The notes beneath the pieces were generated by a model that saw only the letters and a list, made by a program, of their open reading frames with translations, was not told where the DNA came from and did not search any database. A stretch of DNA of 64,000 nt from Chiloscyllium plagiosum (lineage: Eukaryota): assembly GCF_004010195.1 (NCBI RefSeq), contig NC_057719.1, forward strand, positions 62,126,079 through 62,190,078, given 5' to 3'. Made by a program: the position numbers and the translations under genes. This document shows positions 150 through 63,504 of the stretch, piece by piece; the stretch's first letter is position 1; each line of letters begins with the position of its first letter.

Positions 150-1320
150 CCATAAAATGTAGGACCATAAGTAGGCCATTGGCCCCTTGAGGCCACTCTG
201 CCATTCTTTGAGATTATGGTGGATCTGATAATTTTCAACTTGACTATCCTGCATTTTCTTCATAACCCTTGATTCTCTTAACAATTAGAGGTTAGTCTAC
301 ATCAGCCTTGAATATTGTGAGCAACCAAGTCTCAACAGTCCTTTGTAAAACAACCCCACAGATTCACCACCTTCTTATAGAAGAAATTCCTCCACTTCTC
401 TGTATTCAATGGGTGACTCCATACTCTGAGATTCTGGCCTCTGCTCCTAGACTCTCCCACAAGGGGAAACAATCTCTCCATATCTACTTTGTCCACCCCC
501 TTAAGAATCTTACATTTCAGTAAGGACTCTTCTCACTCTTAAGCTCTGATGAATACAAAACCAACCTACTTAACTTCTCTTCATAAGACAATCCCTCCCT
601 AACCCAGGATGAATTGAGTGAATTTTTTTTAAAAACTGTGGATGCTGTAAATCAGAAACAAAAAGGAAAAGCTCAGCAGGTCTGGCAGAGGAAAGGTCAC
701 TCAACCCGAAATGTTAACCCTGATTTCTCTCCACAGATGCTGCCAGACCTGTTTAGCTTTTCTATGAACTGGGTGAACCTTATATGGGCTGTCTGAAATT
801 CCAGTGTAGCTTTCCTTAGATAAGGGGATCAAAACAGTTCACAAAATTCCAGGTGTGCTTATACCAGTGCCTTGACTAGTTTTAGCAAGACTTCCCTATT
901 TTTACACATCATTTCCTTTGAAATAAAGGTCGACTCTTCATTTGCCTTCTCTATTACTTGCTGAACTTGGATGTCACCTTTTTGGGATTCATGCACTACG
1001 ATCCCCTCCAAGTCCTTCTATTCTGCAGCTTTCTGCAGTCTTTCCCTCTTTAAATAACATTCACCTCTTCTATTTTTCCTGCCAAAGGGCATCACCACAC
1101 ATCTTCTAACATGACATTCCATCTGCCAAGACTTTGCCCACTCATTTAACATGCCTATGTTCCACTTGTAATTACCTTGTACCTTCCTCATTACTTCTCA
1201 TCTATTTTTGTGTCTCCTGCAAACTTAACCACAGCACATCGACTTCCATCATCCAAGACATTGACATATATTGTTAAGCATTATGGCTCCTGTGCCACTC
1301 TACTAGTCACACATTGCACA
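150..1320 (-). mobile_element. Old CR1-clade LINE 3' fragment, interrupted by an insertion at 623-763
   Basis: Reverse complement resembles the CR1 ORF2 C-terminus and 3' tail seen elsewhere in the window (e.g. 57590-58670). Heavily decayed. Confidence 0.75.
623..763. mobile_element. Short Penelope-derived element (family C), inverted arms, degenerate hammerhead remnant
   Basis: 23-bp inverted arms 666-688 / 740-762 with 2 mismatches. Internal GAAAGGTCACTCAACCCGAAATGTT. Imperfect 14-bp TSD ATGAATTGAGTGAA (609-622) / ATGAACTGGGTGAA (764-777). Confidence 0.65.
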
Positions 1321-3879
1321 ACTGCATATCATTGGAAACACATCTAATTATTCCTTGAACTTATTAATTGTCCCTTTCAATGGTCTTTCTACATAATTTA
1401 TTCTGTGAATCAATTGCTTTTTTTGTGAAATGAATTTGCGTATGAAGTTGTTCCAACTTAATGATTTGACAAGCATTTCAATCTTTTGTTTTGCAAGCAA
1501 TCTGATCTACTGATTTTGAAATTTCTGTATGGGCAATAGGAGTGCAAAGTCTGAGTGACATCTGAAGTTCAGCAGAAGCTTGATGTTTTGTCACCTCTGA
1601 AGATTGTGTGGAGTACATATTCATGTGATACACATGAAGCACAATAGACTCATTGGTGGTTCATCAAGAAATTCAGGCTGCACATGGAATGAGAATTTCA
1701 TTATAACATGAATATGAGTTGGCGATTCTCTGGCATTATATCATTTAACTAACATCCTGCCACATTTTCCAGGCTCTTGTATAATTTTATTGGTTGCTTA
1801 AAAAGTGATTAATTATTTTTATTGTAAATAATAATGCTAAATCCTCACACAAACCCGAGCATCAGAATTTGCAACATAACAGAAATCAAACAATAATCAC
1901 CAGTGCTTGATGCCTCATAGACTGCAAGAGCTGTTGTTTTCTAACATGTTTCAGCAATTTGCATAAATAATAGATGTAGGAGAAAGTAGCATTAATGTGA
2001 GATGTTTATAGCCTTGTTATGACATCAGTCTCAATAAATAATCACCAAAAGCAGAATATTTATATTGGGCACTATGCCACTTATTCCAAAGCTGTTTCCA
2101 CAGCCCCATTTGCTGTTCCGTTGTCTGTGAATGAATACGCATTTCTTTAAAAATGAGATCCTACTCAAACTTCTGCATTTGAATACAAAGATAAATTACA
2201 TTTTCGAGATCACAAGCTCACTTTCTTGTCACTTGTAAATGTGGTGCAAATTGCTTTCTCATTGGCATCCTCTTCATAATTTACATTTTCCATGCCAAAT
2301 TGTGGGGGTAAGTGCTGTGCATTTGACACAGTTCCTCTCTATGATGCTACTATCAAACAGAGACTAATCCTTTACACATTCGATTCGATGCTCAGGATAG
2401 TGCTTTTTTTTGGCACCAAAAACGGAACCAGAACTCAAACCTACCTAGTCCCTATGTGTGGGATTGGATGAGTTCATTACAGAAACATAATTGTTGTTCA
2501 GTGATACTGCAATTCTATTGTTGCAGTTTTAGTGTATGGTTATTTAAACTGTGTTGTAAACACATGGAAGGTAACAGATAACAGATAACATTGTAATTGT
2601 ATAAGCTGTTACATAGATAAATTATAGCGTTGTTCTTGACTGATGAAGATGAAACATCAGAATATAGAATTATAAAAAAGTAATCCAATCATTTCGCTGC
2701 ACACATTAAAAATAACAAAACATTTTCCTGAATAAATGGGATTTTTGATACTTTAGCTGGGTAACGTATTCAAGGTTGTACTGAGAACCATCAGAGCATT
2801 TGCATTGTAATCCACTCATGCATCTGCTTTTAAGACTCATTATCGTGAGTACGCGCAACTGCACGTTTCTAACAAAACAAATGCTTTACTCCAACAAATT
2901 GATTGCAAATATTGTGTCCCTTTATCAAATAAAGTGCAACTGTTCCACTGCCATGAATTATTAACAGATTTATATTAAGGGAATACATAATAATTGCAGT
3001 GTGGTTACAGTACATTAGACTTAATGATAATGACTTGTGAAAGCAAATGTATTATCATAGATTTGAATCTAAATATTCAGTTTGGTACCACTTTAATGCA
3101 TACAGTTCACCCACCAGAAAGAACAGCAAGTGTGGTATGCATGTCCTGAATATGTAATCAATTAAAGGGTGTTTATTGGGGATTGATAGGACTTATTTTC
3201 TTAACTGGGAATTCTGATCTTGCAAAGGACTGTAGCTCATCACAATGAAAATATTTTCTTTTTAATTAGTGGAAGAGACCAACAACAGATGATCAGGAAT
3301 TGTTCCCTTTTAAATCTTGTATGATAGGTTCAAAGTAAATTATTAATGCATTAATGTCATTGAAAAATCAATGAAGAGTATCATATCAAATTGAAGGATA
3401 AGCAATAAATTTTATTTTGCTTGTTTAATATGAATAACATCTTGAATGTATATTACCAAAATAATCACACTGCTGTTTTATTACAATGATGAAACCAGTT
3501 CTTCTGAACCGTGCTTCATAGATTGAGTTTAAAAAATAGGTAACCCAGCCACAAGTCTTTTTCGCCTTTTCCAGCAATGTAAATTCATATTAGAATATTG
3601 ATATTAGAAGCATAAACAGTGGATCATTTACTGCAGCCTAATGGGGCGCTTGGCTGGAGTTAAATAGACTTCACGATATGCTTCAACAGCAAAATAAAAG
3701 TGTTCAGAATAAATATGCTGGAAATGCTAACGACTTCGCACGTTTCACTTTCCCTGCGAAGTCATCTCTTGTTCAGCTTCTCAAATGGATAGATTAATGA
3801 TATTCCTTCCTGGGAGTTGCACAACCAGTGAAACATGTTTACGGAGCCTGAAACAGTAAGTAAGGAGCAGAACGGGACG

Positions 3880-7179: not shown

Positions 7180-7700
7180 GTCAGAAGCTGGGCATTCTGC
7201 AGTGAGTAACTCATCTCCTGACTTCCCAAGGTCTGCCTACCATCTACAAGACATAAATCAGAGGAATACCTTCCTCTGAAGGCAGCTCCAATGACACTGA
7301 GTCCTGACATCATTTAAGACAATGCAGCCTGATTGATTAGTCACTCCACCTATCACTTTTGGTTCACTCCCTTCATAACCAGGCAAAAGTGGGTACTGCA
7401 GATGCTGGAAATCAGAGTCTGGATTTGAGTGGTGCTGGAAAAGCACAGCAGGTCAGGTAGCATCCGAGGTGCAGGAAAATCGATGTTTCGGGCAAAAGCC
7501 CTTCATCCCTTCATAACCAGTACACAATGGCAGCAGTGATTTCCCACCTACAGGATGCATTGCAACAAATCGCCCAGTCTCCATTGACAGCACCTTCCAA
7601 AGCCCCAACCTCTGCAAGCAAATAGTTTGGGACAGTAGATGCACAGGAACAGCTTGACCTGGAAGTGCTTCTCTAACCCATATGTGATTTGATTTGAGAA
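7180..7700 (+). mobile_element. Old unclassified LINE-like 3' fragment, interrupted at 7383-7505
   Basis: Related sequence recurs at ~15120-15400 (+) and ~60545-60840 (-), e.g. the ...CCTGGAAGT(G)CT(T)CTC(T/C)AA segment. Confidence 0.55.
7383..7505 (-). mobile_element. Short Penelope-derived element (family A), truncated within the hammerhead core
   Basis: Matches the 3' part of 63147-63504. Perfect 15-bp TSD TCCCTTCATAACCAG at 7368-7382 and 7506-7520. Confidence 0.85.
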
Positions 7701-8209
7701 ACAGAATTGGGTACTGTTGACTTGGGTTGGGAAGCTGGCTATAAAGCTTTTTGTGATGTTGCCAAGGTGTAGGACATAAATGATGAAGATAATGAGACCA
7801 AAGCTAGATCTTTGTGACAGGGATGTTGGAAAGAGAAGCCAGTGTTGGAGAAATACTTCAGCTTCTGATTGATGTCGTGGAACTGAGTGAGGGCAGTCGC
7901 ATTGAGTTGACTTTTGGGAGAGAGTCACGAGAAGAGGTTTATCTGGTGTGGTGTGAGGATGAATATTGCAAATTGCTGCATAAAATTCAATGTGCCACAA
8001 ATGCTGAGCAGGCCTAGATGTTGGTGTTGTCATTGAGTGCAGTGAGATACAGTTTGTCAGATCTGTGAGAGGCAAAACTAGGATGTGATGCAACTGAGCT
8101 GTGAAGGGAGAGTTTCAGACTTTACAATGACACTTCTCCAGGTACCTTGTTACCCGAAACTTGCACTCTACTTGGCTGGGGTGACTTGATGGGGTTTGTG
8201 AGGGAAGAA

Positions 8210-8533
8210 GGGGCGGCACAATGGCACAGTGGTTAGCACTGCTGCCTCACAGCGCCAGAGACCCGGGTTCAATTCCCGACTCAGGCGACTGACTGTGTGG
8301 AGTTTGCACATTCTCCCCGTGTCTGCGTGGGTTTCCTTCGGGTGCTCCGGTTTCCTCCCACAGTCCAAAGATGTGCAGGTCAGGTGAATTGGCCATGCTA
8401 AATTGCCTGTAGTGTTAGGTAAAGGGGTAAATGTGCGGGAATGGGAGGGTTACGCTTCGGCGGGTCGGTGTGGACTTGTTGGGCCGAAGGGCCTGTTTCC
8501 ACACTGTAAGTAATCTAATCTAATCTAATCTAA
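8210..8533 (+). mobile_element. HE1-type tRNA-derived SINE, full length
   Basis: Pol III A box TGGCACAGTGG, B box GGTTCAATTCC, conserved core GTGTGGAGTTTGCACATTCTCCCCGTG, (TAATC)n tail. Confidence 0.9.
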
Positions 8534-8559
8534 TTGAGAACTAGCCTGAAACCCTATAC

Positions 8560-9098
8560 AGTCATAGAGATTTTCAGCATGGAAACAGACTCTTTGGTCC
8601 AATTCATCCATGCCAACCAGATATCCTAAACTAATCTAGTCCCATTTGCCAGCACTTAGCCCATATCCGTCTAAACTCTTTCTATTCATATACCCATCCA
8701 GATGCCTTTTAAATGTTTTAATTGTACCTGTTTCCACCACTTCCTCTGGAAGCTCATTCCATACAAGCACCACTGTCTGTGTGAAAAGGTTGCCCTTTAG
8801 GTCCCTTTTTAAATTTTTCCCTTTTCACCCTAAACCTATGCTGTCTAGTTCTGGACCCCCTCCCCCCCCCCCCCCCCCCCTCCCCCCACTCCAGGGAAAA
8901 GACATTGCCTGTTTACCTTATCCATGCCCCTCATGATTTTGTAAACTTCTAAGGTCACGCCTCAGCCTCCGATGCTTCAGGGCAAACAGCCCCAGCCTAT
9001 TCAGCCTCTCCCTGTAGCTCAAACCCTCCTATACTGGCAACATTCTTGTTAATCTTTTCTGAACCCTTTCAGTTTCACAACATTCTTCCGATAGGAGA
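8560..9098 (-). mobile_element. CR1/HER1-type LINE 3' fragment with expanded poly-C tract (~8866-8888)
   Basis: Reverse complement of the CR1 ORF2 end and 3' UTR seen at 26697-27352. Confidence 0.85.
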
Positions 9099-9543
9099 GA
9101 ATAAAGATTTTTACAAAATACATTAAAATCAGAGATTATCTATGACATGCAAACTTTTCTTAATATGCTGAATGTTGCAATGCTGCTATATTCGTATTTA
9201 TTCTCGGGCATGTTACTTTTCAAGCCTCAAAACGGGGTTAGATTAAAAATGATTTGGGAAGCATTGCTTTGGCTGAAAAGGAATACATAAGATATGATGT
9301 CTTTATGATTGAAGGGGCAGTTTTGAGTTTTGTCATAATGTCATACAAGAAGCACAATCAGAAGTTTAAAGTGTTATGTTTGCATGACAAAGAGTAGGGA
9401 AATGTTCAGATTTTATAAAATGCCACACCTGGGTTGTGCCTCAGAGTCACTTTGCTCTTTAAGGTATTCAAAGTGAACTTGAATGGAATTGAAAGTGACA
9501 AATTTTTGTTTTTGGTCATTCATGTTGCTTGCTTATGTCATAC

Positions 9544-9635
9544 TATCACCTGATGAAGGAGCATCGCTCCGAAAGCTCGTGTGCTTCCAATTAAACCTGT
9601 TGGACTATAACCTGGTGTTGTGAGATTTTTAACTG
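9544..9635 (+). mobile_element. Short Penelope-derived element (family B) carrying an intact hammerhead motif
   Basis: 8-bp TSD TGTCATAC at 9536-9543 and 9636-9643. Family recurs at 18359, 27431, 44693, 50803 and 61572. Confidence 0.85.
9547..9581 (+). ncRNA. Minimal type-I hammerhead ribozyme motif (family B)
   Basis: CAC-CTGATGA-A-GGAGC-ATC-GCTCC-GAA-AGCT-C-GTG: stem I CAC/GTG, 5-bp stem II, palindromic AGCT stem III, predicted cleavage after C9578. Confidence 0.8.
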
Positions 9636-11441
9636 TGTCATACAAGGTGTTGTCTAATTTTGAGAAATGCCATAGGGTTAGGATTAATGTGGTATATATG
9701 TAATCATGGAAGGTGATGTCATAGGGAAGTCATATAATATTACATGGCCTTGCTCTATCTTTCAGCTTTGTGGTATGATGAAGCCAAAGTGAGATATTTC
9801 TTAAAGTTAACATTTTCTGTTCATCTGACATTAAATATTCTCTCACAGCAGAAGACCAAACATGACATAGTTTGTAAAGTCAGATTGTGATAAGATTAAA
9901 CTGTCAGAATTAACATTCATTGTTCATAGCACTGGATACAGATGGCACACCCAACCTGTTTTGGGGTTGCTACTTAAATATTAACACAGGAATTTAACTT
10001 CCTGAAAAAACAAAGAAATGATGATTCAACATTATTTTTCAGCCATTCTTGGAATGTTGAGACACTAGTATTTCCAAGAGCGAATGGAACTTTTTTTTAC
10101 GGCACCAAACTCCTTTGTGAAATCATTTGGTTTTAAAGTTTGTGGAAAGCTTCAAAATCAAGAGCTAAATTGAGGTAACGATCAGTTGGCCAATTCATAC
10201 CCAGCCTAGAAAGAATACTATGATAGGAAAGATTAATTGTTTCATTTTTGTTGCTGTTTTTTACATCAGTGGAATATAAAATTGTTGTCTTTTTTGCCAA
10301 GTTCCAAACTGGAAAAGAAGTTTGGAGCAGAAGATGCCTAAAATTCTCGGTGGAACTTGCCCTTATTAATTAAAGCCTGCACATCATAACGCAAGCTAAT
10401 GGGGAAAAGAGACTGACTTTTTAAAATCAGACTTCCGTTATCTGGTCTGTCTGACAGAAATTCCCAGTTGGCTACATCCAATGTTGGACTGTTGTCAAAA
10501 AGCAGCTGAGAGATGTTTCTACAAGTAAATCAAGCAGTAGAGAGATACATGTGCTGTTGGGCCACTTCAGAATAAAGATTCACATAAGCTGGGTGCTGTA
10601 TGTTTCTCTTATTGATTTGGTCAGATTTGGTTTTGAATTTAGTGTCCCGTGTGGGACTGCAAACATCTTTTTTTAAAACCTTGTGAATACTGTGGATTTG
10701 GATTGTATGGCTGCCCGTGAACCAACCCTTTCAGTCTCCCTGAAACCTGCCCTCTGGGTTAGACATGCAGATTTTGTGGTGGGAAACTGGCACTGGCAGA
10801 ATTATCTTCTCAGGGGGAAAGGCCATGGTCAGTCATCATTATGTGAGGACTTGGTGCCTGATTGAGGGCGTGAATGTGCTGAGAGGCAAGCCTCTGCCTT
10901 TGCTTTGAAACCCCTGCTCTCCTTAATCTCTGCAACCCATTTTTATATGAAACTTGTCATGCGTTAAATATAGCCAGGATTGTCCTGTGATCCTGCGACT
11001 CTGGAAGCTGACTTTCTGACAGCATCCGTGGCCTCCCCAGTGGCACTGGTGAGTGCAAGAGCTACTGTCCTCTGGCTCTCAGTGAGGTGAGACCTTAGCC
11101 CTGAACCCCTCAACAAGATTCCACTTCGCTTTTGCCAAGAGAGTTAACTTGCTCAGATTTCTTTATTCGCATACGGCCATGAATGAGCTTGTTGAGGGGA
11201 GAGATTTGGATTTTAGTTTCGAGGTGCAATTCTGTGCGCTGTCAGAGCCACAGCACAGAGAAGACAGTGGCGATGTAGCAGGAAGCCCTCTATATGACAG
11301 GACCAGAACAAAAAGCAGCAACGCTAAAGAGAAAAAGCTGTGAGGATGTCGACATAGTCTCGGCACCAGCAATAAATCAGAATTGTTATGGCAGCAAACA
11401 ATCGCCAATGTAAACTGGATTTGACTCGGGATGAATTAAAA

Positions 11442-11754
11442 GGGCAGCACGGTGGCTCAGTGTTTAGCACTGCTCCCTCACGGCGCCAGGGATTCAGGTT
11501 CGATTCCAGCCTCAGGTCACTCTCTGTGTGGAGTTTGCACATTCTCCCGGTGCCAGTGTAGGTTTCCTCTGGGTTCTTCCCATAGTCCAAAGATGTGCAG
11601 GTCAGGTGAATTGGCCATTCTAAATTGCTCATAGTATTACGTGCATTAGTCAGAGGGAAATAAGTTTGGATTGGGTTACTCTTCGGAGGGTCGGTGTGGA
11701 CTTGTTGGGCCGAAGGGCCTGTTTCCAAACTGTAGGGAATCTAATCTAATCTAA
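11442..11754 (+). mobile_element. HE1-type SINE, full length
   Basis: A box TGGCTCAGTG, B box GGTTCGATTCC, same core and (TAATC)n tail as 8210-8533. Confidence 0.9.
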
Positions 11755-12909
11755 AAGCCAGAAAATTCTGATGTAGGTTTTCCAACATTCTTGGAATGTT
11801 TAAAATGAAATGAGAGGCTAATATTTCCAAATGCAGGCTTTTTTTGTGGCCTCTTTTCCTTTCTCTCTATTGGCTAGTGTTTATTTTTCAATTCCAAGGA
11901 TAGCATCCCAATCTCACATTGACTTCCAACCCTGCACCATGGAAACATGCACACTACAATTTTGATGGGTGGAAAGCAGGAAGTTACATCTTCTGTTAAT
12001 GGTAACAGATGCAGGAAGTGAGCAGGACCCAGTAAGAAGCACGCCAGATTTTTCAATGGAAAGCCAGCTTTTTAAATGGTAGGATGTAATTTGTACGCAA
12101 TATGGAAACCCAATGTGAGAAGAGAAGACCTCTAGTCTTTGCAGTTGGTAAATTTTGATGGTCAGTTTTCCATGTCAGATAGTGATTGAAAGCAGAAAGC
12201 CATCTCAGGCTTGATTTTTGACTCTGGCTCAGGCAATGATGCAAGACCTGGCAGACAATGTAAGCTCTTCCCAAGAACTTTGCTTAATGCACATATTCTC
12301 AAATCCTGTTGTGGGCAATTTTGAGTGTATCACTGTCTTCTAGTTAACCACTTCCACTACAATCCATTTATTTATGAATTTGTGAATTGAACTTTGATCT
12401 TCTGTGCAGATGAGGTTCCTTCTGATGACTGTGCTGATTGATGAACAAAATCCAATTGTACATTTTTTAATCAGATGGTTTAATTAAACACGACATAAAA
12501 AAAAACTTACCTTCAAGCTTTCTGAACAAATTAATTGTCAAGCGCTAATAGTATTAAATTGAACATTCCATTGTGTGAATTTAGATAATTCATGATTGAA
12601 ATATCTGATTTACCTCATCAATTTGTATTCAAATAATTGGTTTATAGATCTCAATTAAATTACTGTATATTTATTTGCAATGTGCATATCTATAGTCCCC
12701 TTATTTCTAACTTGGAGTTAGTATAAGACGCAAGTTGAGTAAGATGTTGGAAAGTAACAAAATTGCTAGCTTTTCTTAAGTAACAATGTTTTCGTTTTCC
12801 TGTGTGCAACTTGCCAAACTGTGCAAACCAGAACATGTTAAAATTCTGCAAGGCCTGGATAGAAATCTTTTGTTGGCTCTAAGTGTCCTGTGTGTGACAG
12901 TATAGTTGG

Positions 12910-13954: not shown

Positions 13955-14280
13955 TCAGTGATACCCTCAAGGTCTCACTGGCGAGGTGCAGCATTCCCAC
14001 AGATACCTGGGAATCACTGGCCCAAGGTCACTTGAAGTGGAGGAAGAGTATCCGAGCAGGCATCGAGCACCTCGAGACTTGCCGTCGGGGGGAAAGAAGA
14101 TGGAAGCCAGGTGAAAACGGTGAAAGGAGTGCAGTGCCACGCCAATGCCCCACCTGCCCCAATGTTGAAGCCTGCAGTAGCCATATTGGTCAGTACGGCC
14201 ACGAATGGACTCACTCTGAGAGTGGGAGAGTCATCCTTATCTTTGAGGGCCTGCTGCTGCTGTTGCTGATGATGATGTAT
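13955..14280 (+). mobile_element. RTE-clade LINE 3' end
   Basis: Translates as DTLKVSLARCSIPTDTWESLAQGHLKWRKSIRAGIEHLE, then a CPTC...HIG..GH.WTH zinc-finger-like C-terminus and a (GCT/GAT)n tail, typical of RTE ORF ends. Confidence 0.7.
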
Positions 14281-14993
14281 CAACGTCAGATGGGTGTCTA
14301 GAGAAATTCCATCAGCAAAGCATCTTTCGTATCCACAGCATTCAATGGGAGAAGTGTTTCTCAAATGTTTGTCGTCTTTTTGAGTCTGATGGACAGACCA
14401 CTGATTCTGCTTGACTGAAAACTGTGCCTCCTAACCAGGTCCTAGGTTTTTAAAATGACACCAGTGTTCCATGGAGGATTCAAAGCTCGCCTTGAAGCAT
14501 GGCAACATGAATAATAATAATCAGCAAGGATGCGCTACCAGTTGCTCCAAATAGTTACAAAATGTTCATTAAGCTACATCACTCGTCGAGTTTGAAAACC
14601 TTAATCGATGAGGCAGAAAGGAAAGAAAAAGGAACAGAATTCTCCCTTCAGGAGCACACAGCCTTGTCTCCAGAGATCAGTTAGTCAACACTCGGCTTGT
14701 TCAGTCATATGTGAACCTGTGACAGAAACTCTCATTTTCTGAGTAGATATTATTCTCGAGGGACAGTCAATGACTGGTATAATAGTAATAAGGGTGTCTT
14801 GCCAAAAGGAGAATTGAAGAAACCAGGCAATGTTTTCTTTTAAAGTAGCTAAAATGTCCCAATTTCTTTCTGATAAGTGGCCGGCTGAAAGTTTTGAGAT
14901 CTGGTAGCACAAACACTACTCACTCTTTTGAGCAGAGAAAGGAACACTGAGAAGATACTTGGATTGTCTGTTCTTTAACCAATCAGCCCTTTG

Positions 14994-15120
14994 CTGATGA
15001 AGGGCTTATGCCCAAAATGTTGATTTCTCCTGCTTCTCAGATGCTGCCTGACCCACCTGTGCTTTTCCAGCACCACACTCTCGACTCTGAACTCCAGCAT
15101 CTGCAGTTTTCACTTTTTCC
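14994..15120 (+). mobile_element. Family A Penelope-derived element, degenerate hammerhead
   Basis: CTGATGAAGGGCTTATGCCCAAAATGTTG (G12>A, CpG-type decay) followed by the family A body GATGCTGCCTGACC...CCAGCATCTGCAG. Confidence 0.8.
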
Positions 15121-17190: not shown

Positions 17191-17735
17191 ACAAATCAGA
17201 TTCTCCTCCACATGCTCTGCCGCAATAAAAAGGAGTTACCTGGTAGGGAGCCTGTCAAAGCAGACAAGACCAGTATCATAGTAAAGTTTGAAACTTTCTC
17301 AACTCAGTCTTTCAGCCTCCTGACAACTTGCTGCTCAACCTAATGGTTTCTGCTGCACACACACTGCCTCTGCCTGCCCAAACTCAATGTAAAAGCGTCT
17401 CGGTTGCACTTGCACCAACTGCCAGAAGTATTTTTTTGGGGATTAAAGAGTGCATTGGACTCTGGCTGTCCTGCTATTATGTGTCTCTTTCCACCCTCCC
17501 ATGCCATTGTTGCAAGTTAAGTGCAAGATGGTCAGTGGTGATCTGTACATTGGTGGCACTGGATTCTATGATAATTGCTCAGCATTTCTGTAGCATAAAT
17601 ATTATTTGGCACTAATCAGTCCTATGGGATTTAGCACACAACTATAAGTTTGTGATATCTACAGATTTATTTGGAAATGTAAGAAGAGTATTGCACAAGA
17701 ATTAGCCAATAGGATCCATTTGCCACAATTGCAGT

Positions 17736-18053
17736 TTAGATTAGATTAGATTACTTAGTGTGGAAACAGGCCCTTCAGCCCAACAAGTCCACACTGACCC
17801 GCTGAAGCGCAACCCACCCAGACCCATTCCCCTACATTTACCCCTTCACCTAACACTACGGGCAATTTAGCATGGCCAATCCACCTGACCTGCACATCTT
17901 TGGATTGTGGAAGGAAACCGGAGCACCCGGAGGAAACCCACGCAGACACTGGGAGAATGTGCAAACTTCACACAGACAGTCGCCTCAGGTGGGAATTGAA
18001 CCTGGGTCTCTGGCGCTATGAGGCAGCAGTGTTAACCACTGTGCCACCGTGCC
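17736..18053 (-). mobile_element. HE1-type SINE, full length
   Basis: Reverse complement of 8210-8533 including the (TTAGA)n tail. Confidence 0.9.
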
Positions 18054-18358
18054 ATGAAGTTTATATGTATTTAAGCACGTGTGTGGTTCCTCAGTGTATC
18101 TATTGACTGAAATTGTATCCATTTCGTTTCCTTCTGGGAAAAAAAAGGCAGTTTCTAAATGCAGCTAAAATCAAAGCTGCAGTTCCTACGCCTGAGGTGC
18201 TTAATCCTGTCTTTCAAACCATTGTACAACTTAAATGGCTTTGAAAATGTCTCCATGTTAAGTATTTCCAATATGAAAGAAAGAAAGCATGTGGAAGAAT
18301 ATTTGCAAGCACAGATATGGAGAGAAGAGTGTTGGGCAGGGTGGTAATGTCATTAAAG

Positions 18359-26069: not shown

Positions 26070-26094
26070 TGTTTAAGATACAGTGAAACGTGGT

Positions 26095-44893: not shown

Positions 44894-47800
44894 ATTCATC
44901 AAGTTAAAAATCACACTAGTCTTGTGGGCTACACCAGTTCAAATAATTTTGAATTCTAGCATTTACACACTCCATCAAAAGGGTGTTGGGTCCAATAAAA
45001 TTCCTTTCTCCAAAGAGAGCTTTTCGTCTGCTGTCTCTACTTTTTTCATATATAGAAACATGGTCCTGGGGGAAGTTCTAATTCTTCCCTTGCCTGTGTC
45101 TCTGGAGCTGCTGTTCTTCATTCAGCAAGATAGTATGAGAGTGTTAAAACTGACACCTGCCACTCTAACAGGTTTCTATTTGAGCTTCTTGCCTTGCGGC
45201 AATCTAAAGTCAAATGTGTCACTTCCCCAAACCAAGTTGCTCATTACTATTACGCCCTTTCTATTTTCGAGTTTCTATTACACCCTTTTGAGAATGTTCT
45301 TGCACTAGGAGATTTAATGAGACGTTTAAAATGTAATCACCTCACAATTGACTGCATTCCTCTCAGCTGTTAGGGGTAGTTTTATCTGTGATGTTGCAGT
45401 CAATCTTCAAGCTCAGTAAATTAGATTGTATCTTGAGATCAAATGTTCATTGATTTATTAATCATAAATTTCATGCAATAACATTGAGGTGCACACTTAA
45501 ACCATAGTACTTGTTGCCATCTCCATTTGTTGAGGACTCAAACTCCGCTCTGTTCCTAATATTTAGGTTAGCCAAATTCTCTCACTCCAAACTTCAAGCC
45601 AGACATCTGCTGATGTCAGGAACTATTTAAAGGTAGTATCCAGGACCCAAGTCCAGGATTCCTCAACCACTTTGCTCGGTTTTCTGATGCTTTTGAGTTT
45701 TTTCCCCTTTTTTTAAGGGTTGAGCTGGGTTAAGTTGTAAACCTGGTGGGTACCATTGTGGTGAGAGGCATGACCGACTGCTTCACAATTTTGATGGAGT
45801 CGGGCCGCTGTACTTTAAAGGCTTCTGCTTCATGCTAAATAATCTGTTGCAAACCATAATCTGGATGAGAGAATTATCTGAAAAGTAAATGCAAAAAGCT
45901 CTCTCATACCGAGGTATGGCAGGTTCTTGGCCATTGACACAGCCTACACCACATAGAAACAAATAACTCGATAGTGGAACTTGACTATGAAAAAGCCAAG
46001 TGATTCAGACAAGTGATGAACAGTGATTCATACAAAATTCTGTTTTCTGCTACTGGGCAATAAAAATGTCATTCATCTAGATCCTTTAAAATTTCAATAA
46101 TTGAAACCATAAGGCAGTTAAAGCCACATAACTGTATGTAAACAAACTTAGTGAAATTGTTTGAGATGGACATTTCGGCTGTCAATCAAACAGATTCCTG
46201 GGTGTTTCAACCTCCTACAGGTCGGCCACTGTTCCCCCAAACATAGCAAGCCAAGAATAAAAATAGCAAGTGCTGGAGAAACTCGGCAGATCTGGAGACA
46301 GAAGCCAAATTAATGTTTTGTGTCAAAACCAGAGCTTTTCCACTTGTGATGGTGATTGCTTTAAATTCCTCACTTTGTATCACCACCTGATGTTCGCTTG
46401 TCACTGGGAACGTTTCTAGGTAAGCTACTGTGAAGACTGACACCCAACACCTGTTTGAATGCCTCTATCATTTCTTTGCTTCTCATTATCAATTCCTCAG
46501 ACTATCTCTCTGCTTGGAGGATCAGCATTTTGCTTTGGTTATTAGTCTTCCTTTATATAGGTCTTTTGGTATAATGCACATTTCGTCAACATGAATTGGC
46601 TATAACATGATTGAATTCTGGATGCTGTTTGGAATGATACAAACCCTCTACTGAATGGGTATAGTTAGTGGTTTTCGAGAGCGGTTTCCCATAACATGGG
46701 GTTGCAATGGAACACAACTGTTGCATTGTAGCAGAACCACCTGTACTTGTGGAAACTCCTACCAGCTGGCATTCTCTCATACACTGCTTTCTGCCTCCAT
46801 TATCTTTTTGGTTATTCTTCCCTGGTTTGTAAAGTGTGTCCAGTCCTCTAACCTACCACACCTCTTTGCAGGTTTGTGCTTCATCTTGCTTTCTGTCCAA
46901 CAAGTCCTAGACTTTGTTGCCTGCAGCCAAACCAGCTGCTCCTGCAGTATCCCCAACGTCAAGTCTTTGTGAGTAATTCTCACTTTCGTGGCAAGTACCT
47001 TCACATCTCCAATACCCAGTAAACATGGATCAACCCCCCCCCTCCCCCCCTTTCTTACAAATTGCAAATTCACTGAACGATAGACGTCAAAATGTGATGG
47101 TGCATCTCCAACAAAATTCTCTCTCCATGTCAAAATCTGCCCAAGATGTAGTTCAGTTTCGCCCCAGAATTTCTGTAGTCACTATTTCTTTTTCAGAGTT
47201 CAGTTATGCTTCCCGACATAACAAACAAAGGTTGATTGGATTTTTGTTTATATTGTGGTAATGTTCGCATCGACAGTAATACATGAGCATGCAAGTCGGT
47301 CAGATATCTGTTTCCTTTGAAGTGGAAAATTGAAATATTGAAGTGATCATGAAGGAAAGGCTTGCATTTGTATAGTGCTTTTTGACCCCAGGACATTCCA
47401 AAGTGCTTTACAGTCAGTGAAGCATGAAGAATATTTGAATTCTTCAATATACTGTTCCCCCCCACCCTGCAGAACACTTGGAAATTACTTCATCGCCTTG
47501 TTAATTGTGGCCTCCCTTTATCCAGAGTTAGACTGATTTTTAATAGATCATGTGTTGAAGGGTTGTGGGGAGAAGGCAGAAAAATGCAGGTGAGGAGCAT
47601 ATCAGCCATGATTGAATCGTGGAGCAAACCTGATGGGCCAAATGGCCTACTTCTGCTCCTATATCTTATGAACTAAGATCCTTATTACGTACATTTATAT
47701 GTTGAGCAGTCACAGTTTAGGGTATTTCAAAGTTCAGCACAAAATGCATTTTTGTCAATTAAATGTAGCATACTCTAGTCATAATTGCGTGCATAACCTG

Positions 47801-48964: not shown

Positions 48965-49056
48965 TTGAAAAGTGTGGTGTTGGAAAAGCGTAGTGGTTCA
49001 GGCAGCATCTGGGGGAGCACGAGAATCGGTGTTTTGGGCATAAGCCCTTCATCAGG
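48965..49056 (-). mobile_element. Family A element, degenerate hammerhead
   Basis: Minus strand CCTGATGAAGGGCTTATGCCCAAAACACCG. Further family A copies at ~35597-35683 (-), ~37790-37838 (-) and ~39712-39836 (+). Confidence 0.75.
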
Positions 49057-49294
49057 CAGTGATTTTGAGTTTGTCCTGAGAAATCCTGCAAGTATGCCGC
49101 AATAGTTGATCTCGCAAAGTAGAGCATTCAGTAGTTACACTCCTTTTGAAGCAGAATTGGGAGTTCAGTTCACTATTGAAACAAGGGCCTGGATAGAAAT
49201 CTTTGTTACGCATCCTTGGAGAATTGGCATGTCCAATATGTTCTATTGCAATCACCCTGCATGATCCCCAGCATCAGAGATATCGAGTTCTAGG

Positions 49295-49573: not shown

Positions 49574-50802
49574 ATAGAATCACACAGCATGGAAACAGAC
49601 CATTTGGTCCAACCAGTCCATTCTCCCTACATATTGTTTCTCTGCACAGTTTTGACTTTTTTTTTAAATCCCCCTAGCTCCGAAAAAAACGTCCCTGAGG
49701 CAAAACCCTGAAATTTGATCTCTGTTGTTGTATCGACACTAAATGGATTGCACTGGCTCACAAATGAGGCTCACTCTCATCTTCTCAAGGGACAGATCAT
49801 AAGTGTGGGGCCAGCCAGCAGTCAACCCATCCTGTCAGTGAATAAAACAAAGAAAAAATAATACTTCACCACCTTACAGGCTTGTATGTATTCTGTCAAC
49901 ATTTTTAAAATTAGGAATGTAGTTGATTAATGTGACAATTACCAGGTGCTCTGTTGAGTGTTGATCAAGGGATGGATATTGAAGAAGAGCAAGAATACTC
50001 CTGGACCCCAGTCAGGCAGGTAAGATCTCCATTTGTTGTCACATCCAAAACAATAGCATCGCAGACAGTCCACGACTCCCTCAGCATCACACTGGAGTCT
50101 CAGACTTGGCCTTTGCACTTGACCTTGTGTTTCGGAGGCTAGAATGGAGAGTTGCGATTCAGAGATCGAGAGGCCATGAGATTGAGTGACAGGTCTAGCT
50201 TGTACTTCCATGACATGTTGCACTTTTCTCCAGCACACATTGCTGATTAATACCACGACTCTAAAACCATGTAACGTCAACAGGAGGTCTGTTAGAATGT
50301 AATAAGGAGGAACATTAGGAAGAGATTGGACAGTGGACGAAGACAAAAGGCGTTGTTGTTCTGCTATGAGTGATTTATGCACCTGTTAACACCACACTGT
50401 GGGGAATTGATTTCAAAAGCCAAGTTTCTTTGATTAGTTTGAACTTGGAGTAAGGCTTCGTTGTAGTTGGTGAGTTTTATTCATGCAGATAGTGTTGAAT
50501 ATTGCTCATTGTAACTAAAATAGCTTGACTTCAACTGATTACCTAACACAGAGTTTTTAAGATTGTGCTTTGGAGCAAATGCTGACTCTTGAGTTTTTAC
50601 CTCTGTATAAAAATTTAGTGTTGTTTACAGGACAGAAAGGAGGCCATGCAAACCAATGTGTCCATGCTGCCTCTATGTGGAGTGAGCCCATCGTTCTCAT
50701 TCCCTCTGTAACCTTGTGGCCTTACAGTTTATAACCTTCAAGTGCCTATCCAATTTCTTGGTAAAAGTGTTGGTAGACGTGGACAGCCATGATGTGGGTG
50801 TG

Positions 50803-51045
50803 CAGGTGTTGGACTGGGGTGGACAAAGTTTAAAAATCACACAACACCAGGTTATAGTCCAATAGGTTTGTTTAGAAACACTAGCTTTTGGAGTACTGCT
50901 CCTTTGTCAGTTGGTTGGAGGCTATCCCACTAGCTACCTGACAAAAGACTCACTAGCTCCTGACAAGGGAGCAGCTCTCCGAAAGCTTATACATTCAAAT
51001 AAACCTGTTGGACTATAACTTGGTGGTATATGATTTTTAACTTTG
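50803..51045. mobile_element. Family B element, inverted pair
   Basis: AAAATCACACAACACCAGGTTATAGTCCAATAGG on the left and CCTGTTGGACTATAACTTGGTGGTATATGATTTT on the right. Both hammerhead cores are degenerate. Confidence 0.8.
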
Positions 51046-51842
51046 CCTGCATGGGCAGTAAGCCTGAGGAAAACACACGCAATATGACACAGAAGTAGTG
51101 GTTACATGTTTTGGAAATGACAGCTGGTCCTGTGTGGTGAAGGAGTGTTGACTGGGATGAGGAGCTTTCTTTGGCATTAACTTGCCTGTGCTTTTCTCTT
51201 GTGATATATTCAGGAAATTGCCAACAGGATGTGTGGGGCGCAGGTGGGAAAAGGAACACTGTGAGCTCAAGAGAGATCTCATCTGATATTGGAAGAGAGA
51301 TTTAAAAAGAAATACAATATCTTAGAAAGCAGATGTAGATGATATGCAATTAATGGTGAACATTTTAAGGATAGAAGTGAACAAGCACTGTTTGAGTTAA
51401 AAATAATTGCCAGTGTTGTTTCTTTCTTTACTAAATCTGAATGGAGGATTGATTGATTTGATTTGATGTGATTTATTGTCACGTGTATTTTGTTACAAAA
51501 TAGTGAAAAATGCTGTATAGTGTGGGGTCTCTCAACGTGCAGTGTAAATACAAGGCAGCTTGTTCATGGAATATATAGAATATATAGAAGAGAAACAGAT
51601 GATTTTAGCCCATTTGAATTGTGTTTATAAACAACCTCATATGAGCATTGCCTTCTATCCATTCTGTACCTATGCTGTTATCTAGTTCTTCCTTAAACAC
51701 CACTGGTTGCTTCAGCACGATCCACCTCTGATTAAATTTATTCAGTGACCCTGCCTCCTGAAGCAAAGTTTCAAAATTGCACAGCCCTCTGAAGAAAGAG
51801 ATTTCCTCTTCATCTCTGGCTTATAAAAATAAGCCCATGTAC

Positions 51843-53745
51843 AGTCAGAGTTATACAGCACAGAAACAGACCCTTTGGTTCAACTCCGTCCATGCTGACC
51901 AGACATCCCAATCTGACCTAGTCTCATTTGCCAGCACTTGGCCCATACCCCTCTAAACGCTTCCTATTCATGTACCCATACAGATGCCTTTTAAATGTTG
52001 TAATTGTACCAGCACCACCATTTCCTCTGGCAGCTTGTTCCATACATGCACCACCTTCAGGGTCAAAAGGTTAAGCCCCCACACGCACACACCGCCCCCC
52101 ACCTGGGTCCTTTTCTATCTATGCCCTCTAGTTTTGGACTCCACTACCTGAGGCAAAAACACCTTGGCTGCTCACCCTAACCATGACCCTCAATTTAATA
52201 AACCTCTCATGTCACTCTTCAGCCTCTGGTGCTCTGGGGGAAGTAGCCCAAGTGTACTCAGCTTCGCCCTCCAGCTCAAACCCTCCAATCCTGGCAACAT
52301 CTTTGTAAATCTTATCCACAAGTTCAAGTTGAACAACATTCTTCCTATAGAAGAGAGACCAGAATTGTATGTAGCGTTCTAGAAGTGGCCTATACAGCTG
52401 CAACATAACATCCCAACTCCTATACTCCGTGCACTGGACAATGAAGGCAAGCATACTAAACACTTCCTTCACTACCTTGTATATCTGTGTCTCCACTTTT
52501 GCGGAACTATGTACCTGCACCTCAAAGTCTCTTTATTTGGCAACACTCCCCAGAGCCCTATTGTTAACTGTATAAGTTCTGCCCTGGTTTGCCTTACTAA
52601 AATGCAGCACTTCACCTTTATCTAAATTCAGCTCCATCTGCCACTCTTCGGCCCATTGGCCCGTCTGGTCAAGTTCCCGTTGTTCTCTAAGATGATAGTC
52701 TTCACTGTCCACTCCTCCATCTGATTTGGTGTCATCTGCAAACTTAGTAAACATGCCTCCTATTAGATTAGATTAGATTGGATTGATTACAGTTGGAAAC
52801 AGGCCCTTCGGCCCAACAAGTCCACACCGACCCGCCGAAGTGTAACCCACCCAGACCCATTCCCCTACATGTACCCCTTCACCTAACACTACGGGCAATT
52901 TAGCATGGCCAATTCACCTGACCTGCACATTTTTGGATTGTGGGAGGAAACCGGAGCACCCGGAGAAAACCCATGCAGACACGGATATTCACACTCAAAT
53001 CATTTACAGAAATGATGAAAAGCAGTAGATGCAACACCAATCCTTGCAGCACACTGCTGGTGACAGGCTTCAGTCTGAAAAGCAATCCTCTTCCATCACC
53101 CTCTGTCTCCTGCCTTCAAGCCAATTTTGTGCTGAATTGGCTAGCTCCCCCTGGATCCCACATGATATAACCTTACCAACCAATCTATCATGTGGAACCT
53201 TGTTGAACACTTTGCTGAAGTCCGGATAGACAATGTCTACCACTCTGCCATCATAATCTTTGTTGTCACTTGTTGAAAAAAACTCAATTAAGTTAGTGAG
53301 ACACTATATTTCTTTCACACAACACCATGCTGACTCTCCCTAATCAGTCCTTGCCTTTCTAAATGCATGTAAATCCTGTCCCTCAGAATCCACTCCAACA
53401 AGTTAGCCATCACTGACGTAAGGCTTACTGGTCTGTAGCTCCCTGGCTCTTCCTTACAGCCTTTCTTAAATAAAGTCACCATGTTAGCCAACCTCCAGTC
53501 TTCCAGAACCTCTCCCATGCTGTCAATGATACAAATATCTCAGCGAGGAGCCCAGCAATCTTCTCCCTGGCCTCGCACATAATTCTTGGAAACACCTGAT
53601 CAGGTCCTGGAGATTTGTCTTCCCATTTATGCACTTTAAGACCTCCAGCATCATCTCTTCTGTAATATGAATCCTTTCGAAGACATTATTATTTATTACT
53701 CCAAGTTCCCTAGCTTTCATGTCCTTCTCCACAGTAAATACCTAT
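51843..53745 (-). mobile_element. CR1/HER1 LINE fragment covering the RT domain, with an HE1 SINE nested at 52764-52984
   Basis: ORF pieces DWRLANMVTLFKKG..EPGSYRPVSLTSV, VTSSVLQGLVL, KFADDTK and WAEEWQM; CR1 3' tail at 51843. Confidence 0.93.
52764..52984 (-). mobile_element. 5'-truncated HE1-type SINE inside the CR1
   Basis: (TTAGA)n tail and HE1 3' half. The CR1 sequence resumes after it. Confidence 0.88.
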
Positions 53746-57589: not shown

Positions 57590-58670
57590 CTCAGCAGGAG
57601 CAGATAATTGAGCCCATTGAGTCCGCAACACCATTCAATATGATCATGATTGATTTGATGATCCTTAACTCCATTCTCTTGCCTTTTCCTTGTCATCCCT
57701 AATTCCCTTACTGATGAAAAATCTTCCTGAGTTTTGAATATGCTTAGTGACCCAGCCTCTATATTACTCTGTGGTGAAGAATTTCATACATTTACCACCT
57801 TCTGAGGGAAGAAACTCCTCTCATCTGCGTCTTTCAATGGGAGACCTGTTGTTCAGAAATTATGTCCCTTGGTTCTAGACTGTCCCTCGAGAAAGTAAAC
57901 CCCTTTATTTCCAGGTAAAAACAATGACTGCAGATGCTAGAAACCAGATTCTGGATAAGTGGTGCTGGAAGAGCACAGCAATTCAGGCAACATCTGAGGA
58001 GCGGTAAAATCGACATTTCGGGCAAAAGCCCTTTACTGCTCCTCAGATGCTGCCTGAACTGCTGTGCTCGTCCAGCACCACTAATCCAGAATGCCTTTGT
58101 TTCTACCCTGTCTTGTTCTCTAAGATTCTTGTGTATTTAAACAAGGTTGTTTCTCATCTATATTCCAACAAGTACAGGCCTGATCTGCACAACTTCTCCT
58201 CATACAGTCGCTCCAAACCTGGGATCTGAAACCTGGGACTACCTCTAATGCCAGAATGCCTTTGCTGAGATGAAGGGCCCAGAGCTGTTCACTGTATTCC
58301 AGCTGTGGCCTGACTAATGCCTTATATAGTTTTAGCAAGATTTCCCCGCACTATTTTTATGTTCAATTCCATTTGAAATAAAGGCCAACATTCCATCTCC
58401 ATTTCCTCTTGCCCTCTAAACTTGGAGTTGTAGCTTTTTGTGCGTCATGGGGAAGGACTACCAAATCCCCCTGTTTTATAGCTTTCTGCAGTCCTTCTCC
58501 ATCTAAATAATGTTTAGCTCCTTTATTCTTCCTGCCAAAATGCATAACGTTATGTTTTGCCACATTATAATCCATCTGTCAAGTTTTTGTCCTCTTGCTT
58601 AACCTGTCTATATCCCTCTGTAGACTGTGTCTCTGCCTTATCCCTTGCCTTCCCACCTATTTCTGTGTCA
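57590..58670 (-). mobile_element. Old CR1 LINE 3' fragment, interrupted at 57913-58092
   Basis: ORFs MLKLYKALVRPQLEYSEQLWA and MDYNVAKHNVMHFGRKN. Confidence 0.85.
57913..58092. mobile_element. Family A element, inverted pair
   Basis: 61-bp inverted arms 57948-58008 / 58032-58092 around a 23-nt loop holding the antisense hammerhead stem II. Possible TSD CCTTT(A/G)TTTC at 57902-57911 / 58094-58103. Confidence 0.85.
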
Positions 58671-61571: not shown

Positions 61572-62092
61572 AGAGTATTGGTTTGGGGTGGACAAAGGTC
61601 AAAATGGCACAACACCAAGTTATAGTCCAATGGGTTTATTTGCAAGCACTAGCTTTTGGAGCACCACTCCTTCATCAGGTGGTTGTGGAGGTTAAGATCA
61701 TAAGACACAGAATTTACATAAAGCTCTATGTAAAACTCTGTAAAACTATACAGAGGGTTTGTCGGTCTTACATAGCATAGGTACACAGACAGACTTCACA
61801 CCGACTGTTTAAAAAGCTGAGCTATCTTGAGAATATCATTTAAAAGAATTTCTGGGATTTGCATATGAAAGAACAAAAACCAGCACATCCCATTATAAAA
61901 GATGAAAGTTTTAATCTAAGATTGTTTACTGAATCGCATCTCCATGACACTGGACTCCTTTGGCTATAAATTCTGTGAGCATGATCTTAATCTCCACAAC
62001 CACCTGATGAAGGAGCAGTGCTCTGAAAGTTAGTGATTCCAAATAAACCTGTTTGACTATTACCTGGTGTGGTGTGATTTTTAAGTGTTTGT
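61572..62092. mobile_element. Family B element, long inverted pair with a hammerhead motif in each arm
   Basis: Arms ~61592-61723 and ~61958-62092. Minus-strand CAC-CTGATGA-A-GGAGT-GGT-GCTCC-AAA-AGCT-A-GTG near 61647-61681; plus-strand CAC-CTGATGA-A-GGAGC-AGT-GCTCT-GAA-AGTT-A-GTG at 62001-62035. Confidence 0.85.
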
Positions 62093-63146
62093 ATGAAAGG
62101 TGGAACTTCCTTTATTCTTAAACCGGGTTTAGTCCAATAAATACTATTCTCTTGTTTTTAAAACTCAAACATATTTGTATGCCTTTTTTTTAAGTCATTG
62201 CATGTACAGAGTTAAACACTTTGACAAATGTGTTTCTTTTCACAAAGCTGTTGTGGTAAAATGAGGTATGGGAAAAGGTGGAGGCCATCATTCTCTTCTT
62301 CAAATGATAATAAATGCTAAGAACAACAGAATGCCATTCTGTGGCTGTTATTTGTTGAGCAAGAAAACTAAATCCAGGTTGGAATTTCCCTCTTTCCCCT
62401 GCCACGTCAGTTAGTTGCAATTTCCTCCCCCCTCTTCCTTCCTGGAAACATGTTTGGGAGCAGCATGATCTTGTACTGACCCTTTGCCAACATTATTCCG
62501 AGCTGCTTTCCAAGATGCACAATATTGAAACCTGGGGAAGATTTTCTTTCAGTCCTTCTGGCAGCAGTGTCATGGTAACAATAAGTCAAATCTGTTACTG
62601 TTAAATGGGATTCCAGTTTTATTTTCAAACCTGTTGTTTTGGGCGTTGCTTCCTTTCAAGTAGGGCTTCTTAAAGTTTGGTGACAGCAGCAGTATGGTAC
62701 TTTGTGGAGCATTTCAAGACGTGAGTCGCGGTGCCAAGGTTGGTCTACACCTCACTTGTGAGAAGAACGTGACACAGAACAGGATGGCAACATAACCCTT
62801 GTGTCCTATCACTATCAGGCAACCTTTCCAACTCTTGGGGGCAACATCTCTGGAGGTCGATGTCCATATCAAAACCAACAATGGAGCATTAGTCAAACAG
62901 TAACTCTGCTCAATGTGGGAATCCCAACATCATCGGGATGCCTATCATGCTGCAACTCTGTGTCCGCAATCATATCAGATGCATTCTGTGCCAGAGATAC
63001 AGAAGAGAACAGTTGAAATGTCTGGTGAGTTGCACTAGTGTTGCCCAGATCCTAGGCATCACATGGAGAAATAATATCATGAATGAAAAGTGCTACACAG
63101 GACTGTCCAGAGGTCCGTACTGGATATTGGGATAGACAGTTGACGC

Positions 63147-63504
63147 CCTTCCCCCACCTCATCCTAGTTTCTAACCTCCAGCAACACGATCCCCTGACTT
63201 GTCCGGACTTGTCCGACCTGCCCAGCTCCTTTTCCACCTATCCACTCCACCCTCTCCTCCCTGACCTATCACCTTCATCTCCTTCCCCACTGACCTATTG
63301 TACTCTATGCTACTCTATCCCCACCCCCACCCTCCTCGAGCTTATCTCTCCACGCTTCAGGCTCTCTGCCTTTATTCCTGATGAAGGGCTTTTGCCCGAA
63401 ACGTCGATTTTGCCTGTCCTCGGATGCTGCCTGAATTGCTGTGCTCTTCCAGCGCCACTGATCCAGAATCTGGTTTCCAGCATCTGCAGTCATTGTTTTT
63501 ACCT
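63147..63504 (+). mobile_element. Young family A Penelope-derived element with intact hammerhead motif
   Basis: Perfect 9-bp TSD AGTTGACGC at 63138-63146 and 63505-63513. C/T-rich 5' part, CpGs retained. Confidence 0.88.
63374..63409 (+). ncRNA. Minimal type-I hammerhead ribozyme motif (family A)
   Basis: ATTC-CTGATGA-A-GGGC-TTTT-GCCC-GAA-ACGT-C-GATT: perfect 4-bp stem II, palindromic ACGT stem III, predicted cleavage after C63405. Stem I is short and imperfect. Confidence 0.78.

Follow-up and report, generated by a model that had tools for sequence, protein, structure and literature searches.

Abundant short hammerhead-bearing repeats of Chiloscyllium plagiosum as probable end modules of Neptune-type Penelope-like elements

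Minimal hammerhead ribozymes are known from the pseudo-long terminal repeats (pseudo-LTRs) of metazoan Penelope-like elements (PLEs), and among fishes both Neptune and Poseidon elements carry them (Cervera and de la Pena, 2014, PMC4209133). Related non-LTR retrozymes are tandem repeats, and tandem hammerhead repeats derived from pseudo-LTRs have been reported in one cartilaginous fish (Li, Clavereau and Pollet, 2026, bioRxiv 10.64898/2026.07.22.740005). In PAc, a Poseidon element of Anolis carolinensis, reverse transcription starts at two internal sites (Frangieh et al., 2024, PMC11167929). Here we analysed a 64,000-nucleotide stretch of Chiloscyllium plagiosum (RefSeq assembly GCF_004010195.1, contig NC_057719.1, positions 62,126,079 to 62,190,078, forward strand; hereafter the window) from a 3.56-Gb assembly in which runs of N are numerous at repeats. 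The window contains three families of short hammerhead-bearing repeats (A, B and C) and the end of a Penelope element. We conclude with considerable confidence that A, B and C represent the hammerhead-bearing end modules of three Neptune-type PLEs, and that the copies in the window are short products of reverse transcription.

Module profiles were built from natural copies, and the reversed window served as a control. The profile search identified 24 module pieces in the window (10 of family B, nine of A, four of C and one Penelope end) and none in the reversed window; a self-comparison of the window likewise recovers families A, B and C. These pieces group into 18 insertions, or one per 3.6 kb, six of which are head-to-head pairs and none of which contains module copies in direct tandem. 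Across 40 evenly spaced 10-kb stretches of the genome (375,602 called bases), 152 pieces in 111 insertions were identified (41 of them head-to-head), corresponding to one insertion per 3.4 kb, and the reversed control of these stretches gave no pieces. Only four same-strand module pairs lie less than 1 kb apart among the 152 pieces. Modules, including those of a fifth family (D), cover 14,780 bases or 3.9% of the sampled stretches, from which we infer by extrapolation approximately one million insertions genome-wide. Exact family A cores number 15,996 in the genome and exact frame-start words 925, a ratio of about 17 to 1. A first-pass annotation of the window had reported about 20 repeat copies at one per 3–4 kb, a density that agrees with these counts, and the three cores it named are present at 63378–63405 (A), 9550–9578 (B) and 22106–22073 on the minus strand (Penelope end).

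Longer copies of family A run through a pyrimidine-rich untranslated region (UTR) into a GIY-YIG frame, in the order GIY-YIG, UTR and module (L073, L085 and L086), and the GIY-YIG domain matches Pfam PF01541 at 23.8 bits (cut-off 22.6). At locus L203, an A module is followed by a long frame with 89% identity to an RVT_1-bearing protein. Module A is thus found on both sides of the frame, which indicates that it is the pseudo-LTR. The nearest named proteins to the family A frame come from carpet sharks (87–88% identity over the covered part). The family B module lies 511–688 bases behind the end of its own GIY-YIG domain (L039 and L036), with an inverted reverse transcriptase (RT) in L033, and in two of 30 exact-core loci of family C (L177 and L179) remnants of the RT thumb and GIY-YIG domain lie 176–274 bases before the module. 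The GIY-YIG domains of B and C are 34% and 42% identical to that of A, respectively. The endonuclease (EN) and RT of family B and the RT of the window, which the Pfam scan missed as fragments, were assigned through BLAST matches to the A protein and to its relatives in databases. A cysteine linker is encoded by A and B (CX4CXXC) and, according to the translation of L179, by C (CX2-5CXXC), and is absent from the Penelope element of the window (22.0–23.8 kb). A CX2-5CXXC linker between RT and EN marks Neptune and Nematis, while Penelope and Poseidon lack it (PMC8557442); the designation Neptune-type is therefore provisional, being based on a linker shared with Nematis and not on an RT tree.

Endonuclease-bearing PLEs are defined by RT with a GIY-YIG domain at the C terminus, bounded by pseudo-LTRs; in fragments, A modules are found on both sides of such a frame and B and C modules on its 3′ side. 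A SINE (short interspersed element) would instead have a master of fixed length with its own head, whereas here the whole module is a PLE end and the 5′ ends vary; an Rfam search of the window revealed no tRNA or 7SL match at the modules. Moreover, of 143 unselected copies of family A, 61 extend at least 20 bases into the 3′ UTR of the parent, as do 22 of 60 copies of family B, and these extended copies (about four in 10) carry the same subfamily bases as the parent. Minimal dimer-type motifs spread by Penelope-type enzymes, as the first-pass annotation proposed, are supported, cleavage itself being predicted. The separate non-autonomous, retrozyme- or SINE-like families that it envisaged are not supported for the window copies, given the continuity of each family with its own PLE coding end, the extensions into UTRs and the lack of direct tandems in the window; its retrozyme-like idea does apply to rare non-coding tandem arrays of the A end elsewhere in the genome.

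The copies bear the insertion signature of PLEs, including 5′ truncation, an inverted partner, a tail, partial tandems and target-site duplication. In positions numbered from C3 of the family A core, with the predicted cut between 28 and 29, the 3′ ends of 17 young A copies fall at 88–92 (six copies), at 125–127 (nine) or elsewhere (two). These two sites are about 35 bases and one tail apart, similar to the two start sites of PAc (PMC11167929). In young copies of both A and B the 3′ ends are fixed and the 5′ ends variable. The 5′ ends were counted in copies retaining the core; where a locus had been retrieved through the family being counted, its central copy was excluded. For family A (n = 143) they are bimodal, with 79 at 0 to −9, three at −10 to −19 and 61 further upstream; for family B (n = 60) the corresponding numbers are 33 (counted from +1 to −9), five and 22. 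The ends therefore pile up at a hard edge in front of the core, not at the predicted cut, and the frame-bearing copy at L203 begins at the same edge as the stubs. Target-site duplications of 9–16 bp were identified at nine of 15 window events tested, with one mismatch allowed and a tenth match of 7 bases left uncounted. Similar to endonuclease-bearing PLEs (Craig et al., 2021, PMC8557442; Arkhipova et al., 2013, PMC3846280), these copies combine strong 5′ truncation, partial tandems and an adjacent inverted copy with an optional 30–40-bp tail, 8–10-bp duplications and pseudo-LTR mobilisation in trans. Different from those elements, the shortest products dominate here and the 5′ edge lies at the front of the hammerhead.

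These ends suggest a model in which RT would prime at one of two internal sites 90–130 bases behind the hammerhead and stop soon after. Priming on the 5′-most module of a parent RNA would give a short copy ending by run-off close to where the RNA begins, and in Drosophila virilis Penelope the promoter and start lie within the pseudo-LTR (PMC2377424); as an alternative to such run-off, RT might stall at the ribozyme fold. The ribozyme would be selected in the parent lineages, where it may fold as a double hammerhead through its 4-nt palindrome, perhaps with the aid of the protein of the element. In scattered copies it decays, has no partner or lies buried in a hairpin. PAc requires template sequence 3′ of its start sites (PMC11167929), and because the corresponding sequence is absent from the stubs, most of these are likely dead ends. 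Two family A insertions were also observed in or next to other PLE ends, one splitting a Penelope-end hammerhead (L188:1400–1900) and one adjoining a head-to-head pair of family B (L189:1740–1900), and PLE ends may be favoured insertion targets.

Several observations weigh against the assignment of A, B and C to PLE ends. No intact full-length element was seen, and the architecture was pieced together from overlapping fragments; long open frames at first taken as full-length parents turned out to be runs of N. The frame of family C was reached in only the two of 30 loci mentioned above, and the upstream test could not be applied to 21 of the 23 C pieces sampled (five cores were found, one of which extends), so that C may include an old non-autonomous derivative. 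Among eight B-type EN matches, three have a B module in the 800 bases behind them, one has an A module and the rest have none. Some of the nine duplications (10 bp with one mismatch) may be due to chance, this count having no control, and the pile-up of 5′ ends could also be obtained from short master RNAs.

The strict descriptor of the motif comprised the core, the extra base, the G10.1–C11.1 pair, at least three of four stem II pairs, the palindrome and H17. Five of the 24 window pieces match it (two A, two B and the Penelope end), whereas each of 100 Markov-2 control sequences contains no match, and in the sampled stretches the core is intact in 27 of 152 pieces. None of the four C pieces in the window retains the whole core; the family C hammerhead is known from other loci, with 110 exact matches to the 34-nt C core and none in the control. 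The core CUGANGA ... GAAA ... UH is present, and its catalytic positions are invariant in the four window families and in a fifth outside. Position 7 is U, A or G. The extra base between 9 and 10.1 is A in families A, B, C and D and U in the Penelope end, and the G10.1–C11.1 pair is present in the hammerhead families. Stem II consists of GGGC/GCCC (A), GGAGC/GCUCC (B), GGGUC/GACCC (C) or GAGUC/GACUC (D), and stem III is the palindrome ACGU or AGCU without a loop 3. Every family has a stem I of 3–4 bp, namely AUUC/GAUU (A), CAC/GUG (B), AGUU/AACU (C), AGCU/AGCU (D) and CCA/UGG (Penelope end), which in 65 of 71 family A copies is formed by 2 bp, a U.U and 1 bp. Positions 2.1:1.1 and 2.2:1.2 pair as CG/UA (A), CG/AU (B), UA/UA (C), UA/CG (D) and AU/CG (Penelope end). 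All three stems thus vary between families with pairing kept, and on inspection of the five families the changes are compensatory. Family D, a sister to A and C, was encountered at L286, L287, L291, L305, L306, L309 and L310 (approximately 1455–1600) and was common among matches to a control pattern downstream of the cut site; it accounts for four pieces of the 40 sampled stretches and is absent from the window.

On sequence grounds the minimal hammerhead motif, predicted to be of the dimer type, is genuine in the window. The first-pass annotation correctly described the pairing of stem II, the 4-nt palindrome and the additional base behind A9, and the core is more conserved between families than its flanks, as that annotation required, the cores being the same while the stems differ. 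Its shared core in about 20 copies stands as a motif but not as a count, given that the whole core survives in only the five pieces mentioned above and in no C piece of the window, and its restriction of position 7 to T or A does not hold. The families were also called unrelated, which fits the downstream comparisons of A–B, A–P, B–C, B–P and C–P (P, Penelope end), all at or near shuffle level, but not A and C, whose modules are homologous along their length and align downstream of the hammerhead at a score of 60–62 that none of 500 shuffles reaches. The Rfam search that it recommended found no hammerhead in the window at E ≤ 1, only weak miRNA-like matches on hairpins. Energy-minimum folding yields a double hammerhead for no family and is uninformative for helices so short; the folds obtained for A and the Penelope end differ from the hammerhead fold, and head-to-head copies are predicted to form long hairpins that bury the motif.

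Traces of cleavage were sought in the genome and in RNA. Eight of 260 A copies were scored as starting exactly at the cut site, including five clean pieces in four loci, two ambiguous ones and one misparsed. A genome-wide search for the cut-start pattern gave 1,840 matches, of which the first 100 were tallied by eye and the first 30 read in context. Among these 100, about 11 start cleanly at the cut site versus about 8–20 at each of five upstream positions, and about 25 further cut-site joins are explained by 2–3-base microhomology with an inverted partner or by core deletion. A genomic footprint of cleavage was accordingly rejected, as no excess of cut-site starts is present genome-wide when joins by microhomology are set aside. 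On L203, a single-cell poly(A) run gave 866 reads from both strands, with a depth of about 100–240 on the module and 2–10 on the frame, and a second run gave none. No pile of read ends and no back-joins were found in these reads, a library type that cannot show linear or circular monomers, and PAc likewise had no reads ending at its cut site (PMC11167929). Reads from both strands of the module fit passive transcription, and a discrete RNA is also possible. A single-base start at the word TCATT/TCAGT, which we take to be an initiator-like consensus, was considered and is not claimed, because the ends spread over 10 bases and families C and D offer no long copies for a test.

Outside the window, the A end also forms non-coding tandem arrays. 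Among the first 29 distinct frame-start loci, tallied by eye, 22 continue directly into a same-strand module, one does so across a gap, four do not and two are unresolved. Most frame-start pieces end at about 170–290, and joining of the frame start to the next module produces short protein-free tandems. One junction, linking 250 to −33, is shared by 18 loci (L208–L225) that lie on 14 contigs and are arrays of two to six units of 248–385 bases each. An identical A9G change of the core is carried by the second unit in 15 of the 18 arrays, and 12 of these 15 share four more private bases. This second unit ends by 266 in all 15, whereas seven of 28 unselected frame-start pieces extend further (rough chance 0.01). 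Later junctions are common to three, three and two loci with different flanks where readable, and two pairs of arrays share a piece of foreign upstream DNA. Upstream of approximately 1260 in L215 and L223, a short foreign segment and then a family A RT-thumb piece lie before the array in the same orientation, a layout that suggests template switching between coding and array RNAs.

The arrays point to non-coding masters likely copied in trans, a mode of mobilisation that pseudo-LTRs permit (PMC3846280). Because ends recur at 263–266, some of the shared junctions may have arisen twice, and a frame-bearing master of the arrays may lie unseen in the gapped assembly. Similar to non-LTR retrozymes (Cervera and de la Pena, 2020, PMC7229834; bioRxiv 10.64898/2026.07.22.740005), the arrays have tandem units of 250–385 bases, each with a type I hammerhead and derived from a pseudo-LTR. 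Head-to-tail repeats of 150–450 bp with a hammerhead each, which characterize retrozymes, are found only in these rare arrays; the window contains none, and its copies are single or head-to-head. In contrast to retrozymes, the units vary in length and junction within an array, have a motif of the minimal type and terminate at start sites of PLEs. We tentatively propose, with rather less than even confidence, that retrozyme-like arrays are born and spread by Penelope machinery. The frame start (at about 170–290) would routinely be joined to the UTR of a terminal module, giving hammerhead tandems of 250–385 bases, some of which would have become trans-copied masters on many chromosomes, one with a core-mutant unit that may keep its RNA uncut. 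The arrays would grow and vary through repeated Penelope insertion rather than through rolling circles or unequal crossing over.

Such arrays raise the question of whether most stubs descend from short non-coding masters, SINE- or retrozyme-like, that borrow the Penelope enzyme in trans. More than half of the 5′ ends do fall within a 10-base window, modules exceed frame starts about 17 to 1, and non-coding arrays exist, 18 loci sharing one junction and 15 of them the A9G change and the limit at 266. However, the 5′ ends are spread and not fixed, about four in 10 copies reach the parent UTR with the same subfamily bases, and the frame-bearing L203 begins at the front edge of the stubs. The arrays amount to tens of loci against 15,996 exact cores, and same-strand pairs less than 1 kb apart are limited to four among 152 sampled pieces, with none in the window. 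We regard this origin as quite unlikely for most stubs and retain their derivation from PLE parents.

Compatible with that derivation is the proposal that the motif is kept for a role other than cleavage (as a promoter, translation start, protein-binding site or RT stop) and that no cutting occurs in these elements. The lack of excess cut-site starts after removal of microhomology joins, the lack of a point where many RNA reads start or end, the copying of an A9G core to 15 loci, the interrupted stem I of family A and the non-hammerhead energy-minimum folds of A and the Penelope end are all consistent with it, and PAc does not need cleavage for insertion in vitro (PMC11167929). Nevertheless, the catalytic core is invariant across five families whose three stems all vary with pairing kept. 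Moreover, the PAc motif cleaves once protein is added (PMC11167929), and a minimal motif of Schistosoma cleaved weakly as a dimer in a study in which a monomer did not cleave (PMC4209133). A purely non-cleaving role seems improbable, though less so than short masters. Chance or convergent likeness of the core among unrelated repeats might be suspected from its brevity, the lack of an Rfam hammerhead and the absence of downstream similarity among A, B and the Penelope end. It is refuted by five descriptor matches against none in 100 controls, by the position of every family at the expected end of a PLE frame and by the compensatory stem changes, and we give it practically no weight.

The class itself is already published, and this genome shows in great abundance the pattern that Cervera and de la Pena (2014) described. 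As in that survey (PMC4209133), the motifs have the core, the extra base between 9 and 10.1, the G10.1–C11.1 pair and palindromic positions 15.2–16.2, several consensus families occur in one genome, and most motifs are single, ascribed to truncated PLEs, with some opposite-strand pairs. Different from it, the stems are shorter here (stem II 4–6 bp and stem I 3–4 bp), and a single subfamily has 15,996 exact cores compared with the approximately 4,000 motifs reported for coelacanth and 9,000 for Xenopus. No shark is named in its abstract, results or discussion. Unlike PAc (PMC11167929), a Poseidon element, families A, B and C are Neptune-type, and the first ATG of the long frame of A is located 160 bases behind the core. 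These families were not found described in the literature on hammerheads, Penelope and sharks or cartilaginous fish, a search whose coverage excluded Repbase/Dfam and preprint supplements. The likely addition to the known pattern is the rare non-coding A-end arrays re-copied in trans, which offer a direct view of retrozyme-like repeats arising from pseudo-LTRs. The genome further offers scale and material, with about a million insertions by extrapolation, about 4% of the DNA sampled, five variants of the ribozyme in which compensatory changes arose naturally, and copies that are very young, making the role of PLE hammerheads testable in a vertebrate.

Among the features of the window, a young family A copy lies at 63146–63504 (plus strand) with 232 bases of parent 3′ UTR, an intact hammerhead, the module, a tail and a 9-bp target-site duplication. 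Other A stubs lie at 7382–7507 (minus; 5′ start within the core, duplication of about 15 bp), 14991–15120 (plus; core decayed), 28180–28303 (plus; core 28186–28213 matching the descriptor with wobble pairs, duplication of about 10 bp) and 48973–49057 (minus; core decayed, 3′ end at the first 3′ stop site). Old A stubs with decayed cores were identified at 35599–35683 (minus; duplication of about 12 bp) and 39705–39835 (plus). A head-to-head pair of A (57914–58092, both strands) has a predicted 61-bp hairpin that corresponds to a weak mir-2007 match in Rfam.

Family B is represented by a plus-strand stub at 9542–9638 with an intact hammerhead (stem I 9547–9549/9579–9581) and a duplication of 8–10 bp, and by another at 18358–18451 (plus) that is truncated downstream of the hammerhead, with a duplication of about 10 bp. 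Its head-to-head pairs, on both strands, are located at 27420–27609 (cores absent or decayed), 44692–44893 (plus-strand core 44822–44850 matching the descriptor, stem I lost, a long hairpin predicted), 50793–51046 (cores decayed) and 61574–62087 (retaining 44 and 184 bases of parent 3′ UTR). Family C is limited to a head-to-head remnant at 665–768 (minus piece 665–688, plus piece 687–768; core without its first bases), a minus-strand remnant without the front of the core at 37451–37528 and a weak C-like remnant at 46259–46324 (minus; E 3e-5).

On the minus strand, the Penelope/Poseidon-type element comprises an end module at 21996–22134, whose hammerhead has a stem I of 3 bp and one mismatch in stem II, and a broken, 5′-truncated RT and GIY-YIG frame without cysteine linker at 22135–23780 (upper boundary approximate), the GIY-YIG domain of which has a Pfam E-value of 5e-4, under the curated cut-off. 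At 22100–22050 (minus), the additional base behind A9 forms the U of an ATG with which stem II begins, as also in PAc (PMC11167929).

Other repeats of the window include eight pieces of a 320-base repeat with the look of a tRNA-headed SINE (8208–8536, 11439–11755, 17726–18053, 23785–24110, 25476–26069 and 52762–52984), one of which lies at the 5′ end of the Penelope element; we presume it to be HE1-like. Six 3′ fragments are presumably of a CR1-like long interspersed element (8556–9100, 24217–24589, 26699–27355, 32530–33430, 38363–39217 and 51840–52763). A minus-strand frame of 138 codons with a glutamine run (14014–14430) has no Pfam match. A GC-rich tandem repeat at 31257–31576, with a period of about 69 and a sub-period of about 35, is open in several frames, and nested inverted repeats at 35968–36393 resemble a small derivative of a DNA transposon.

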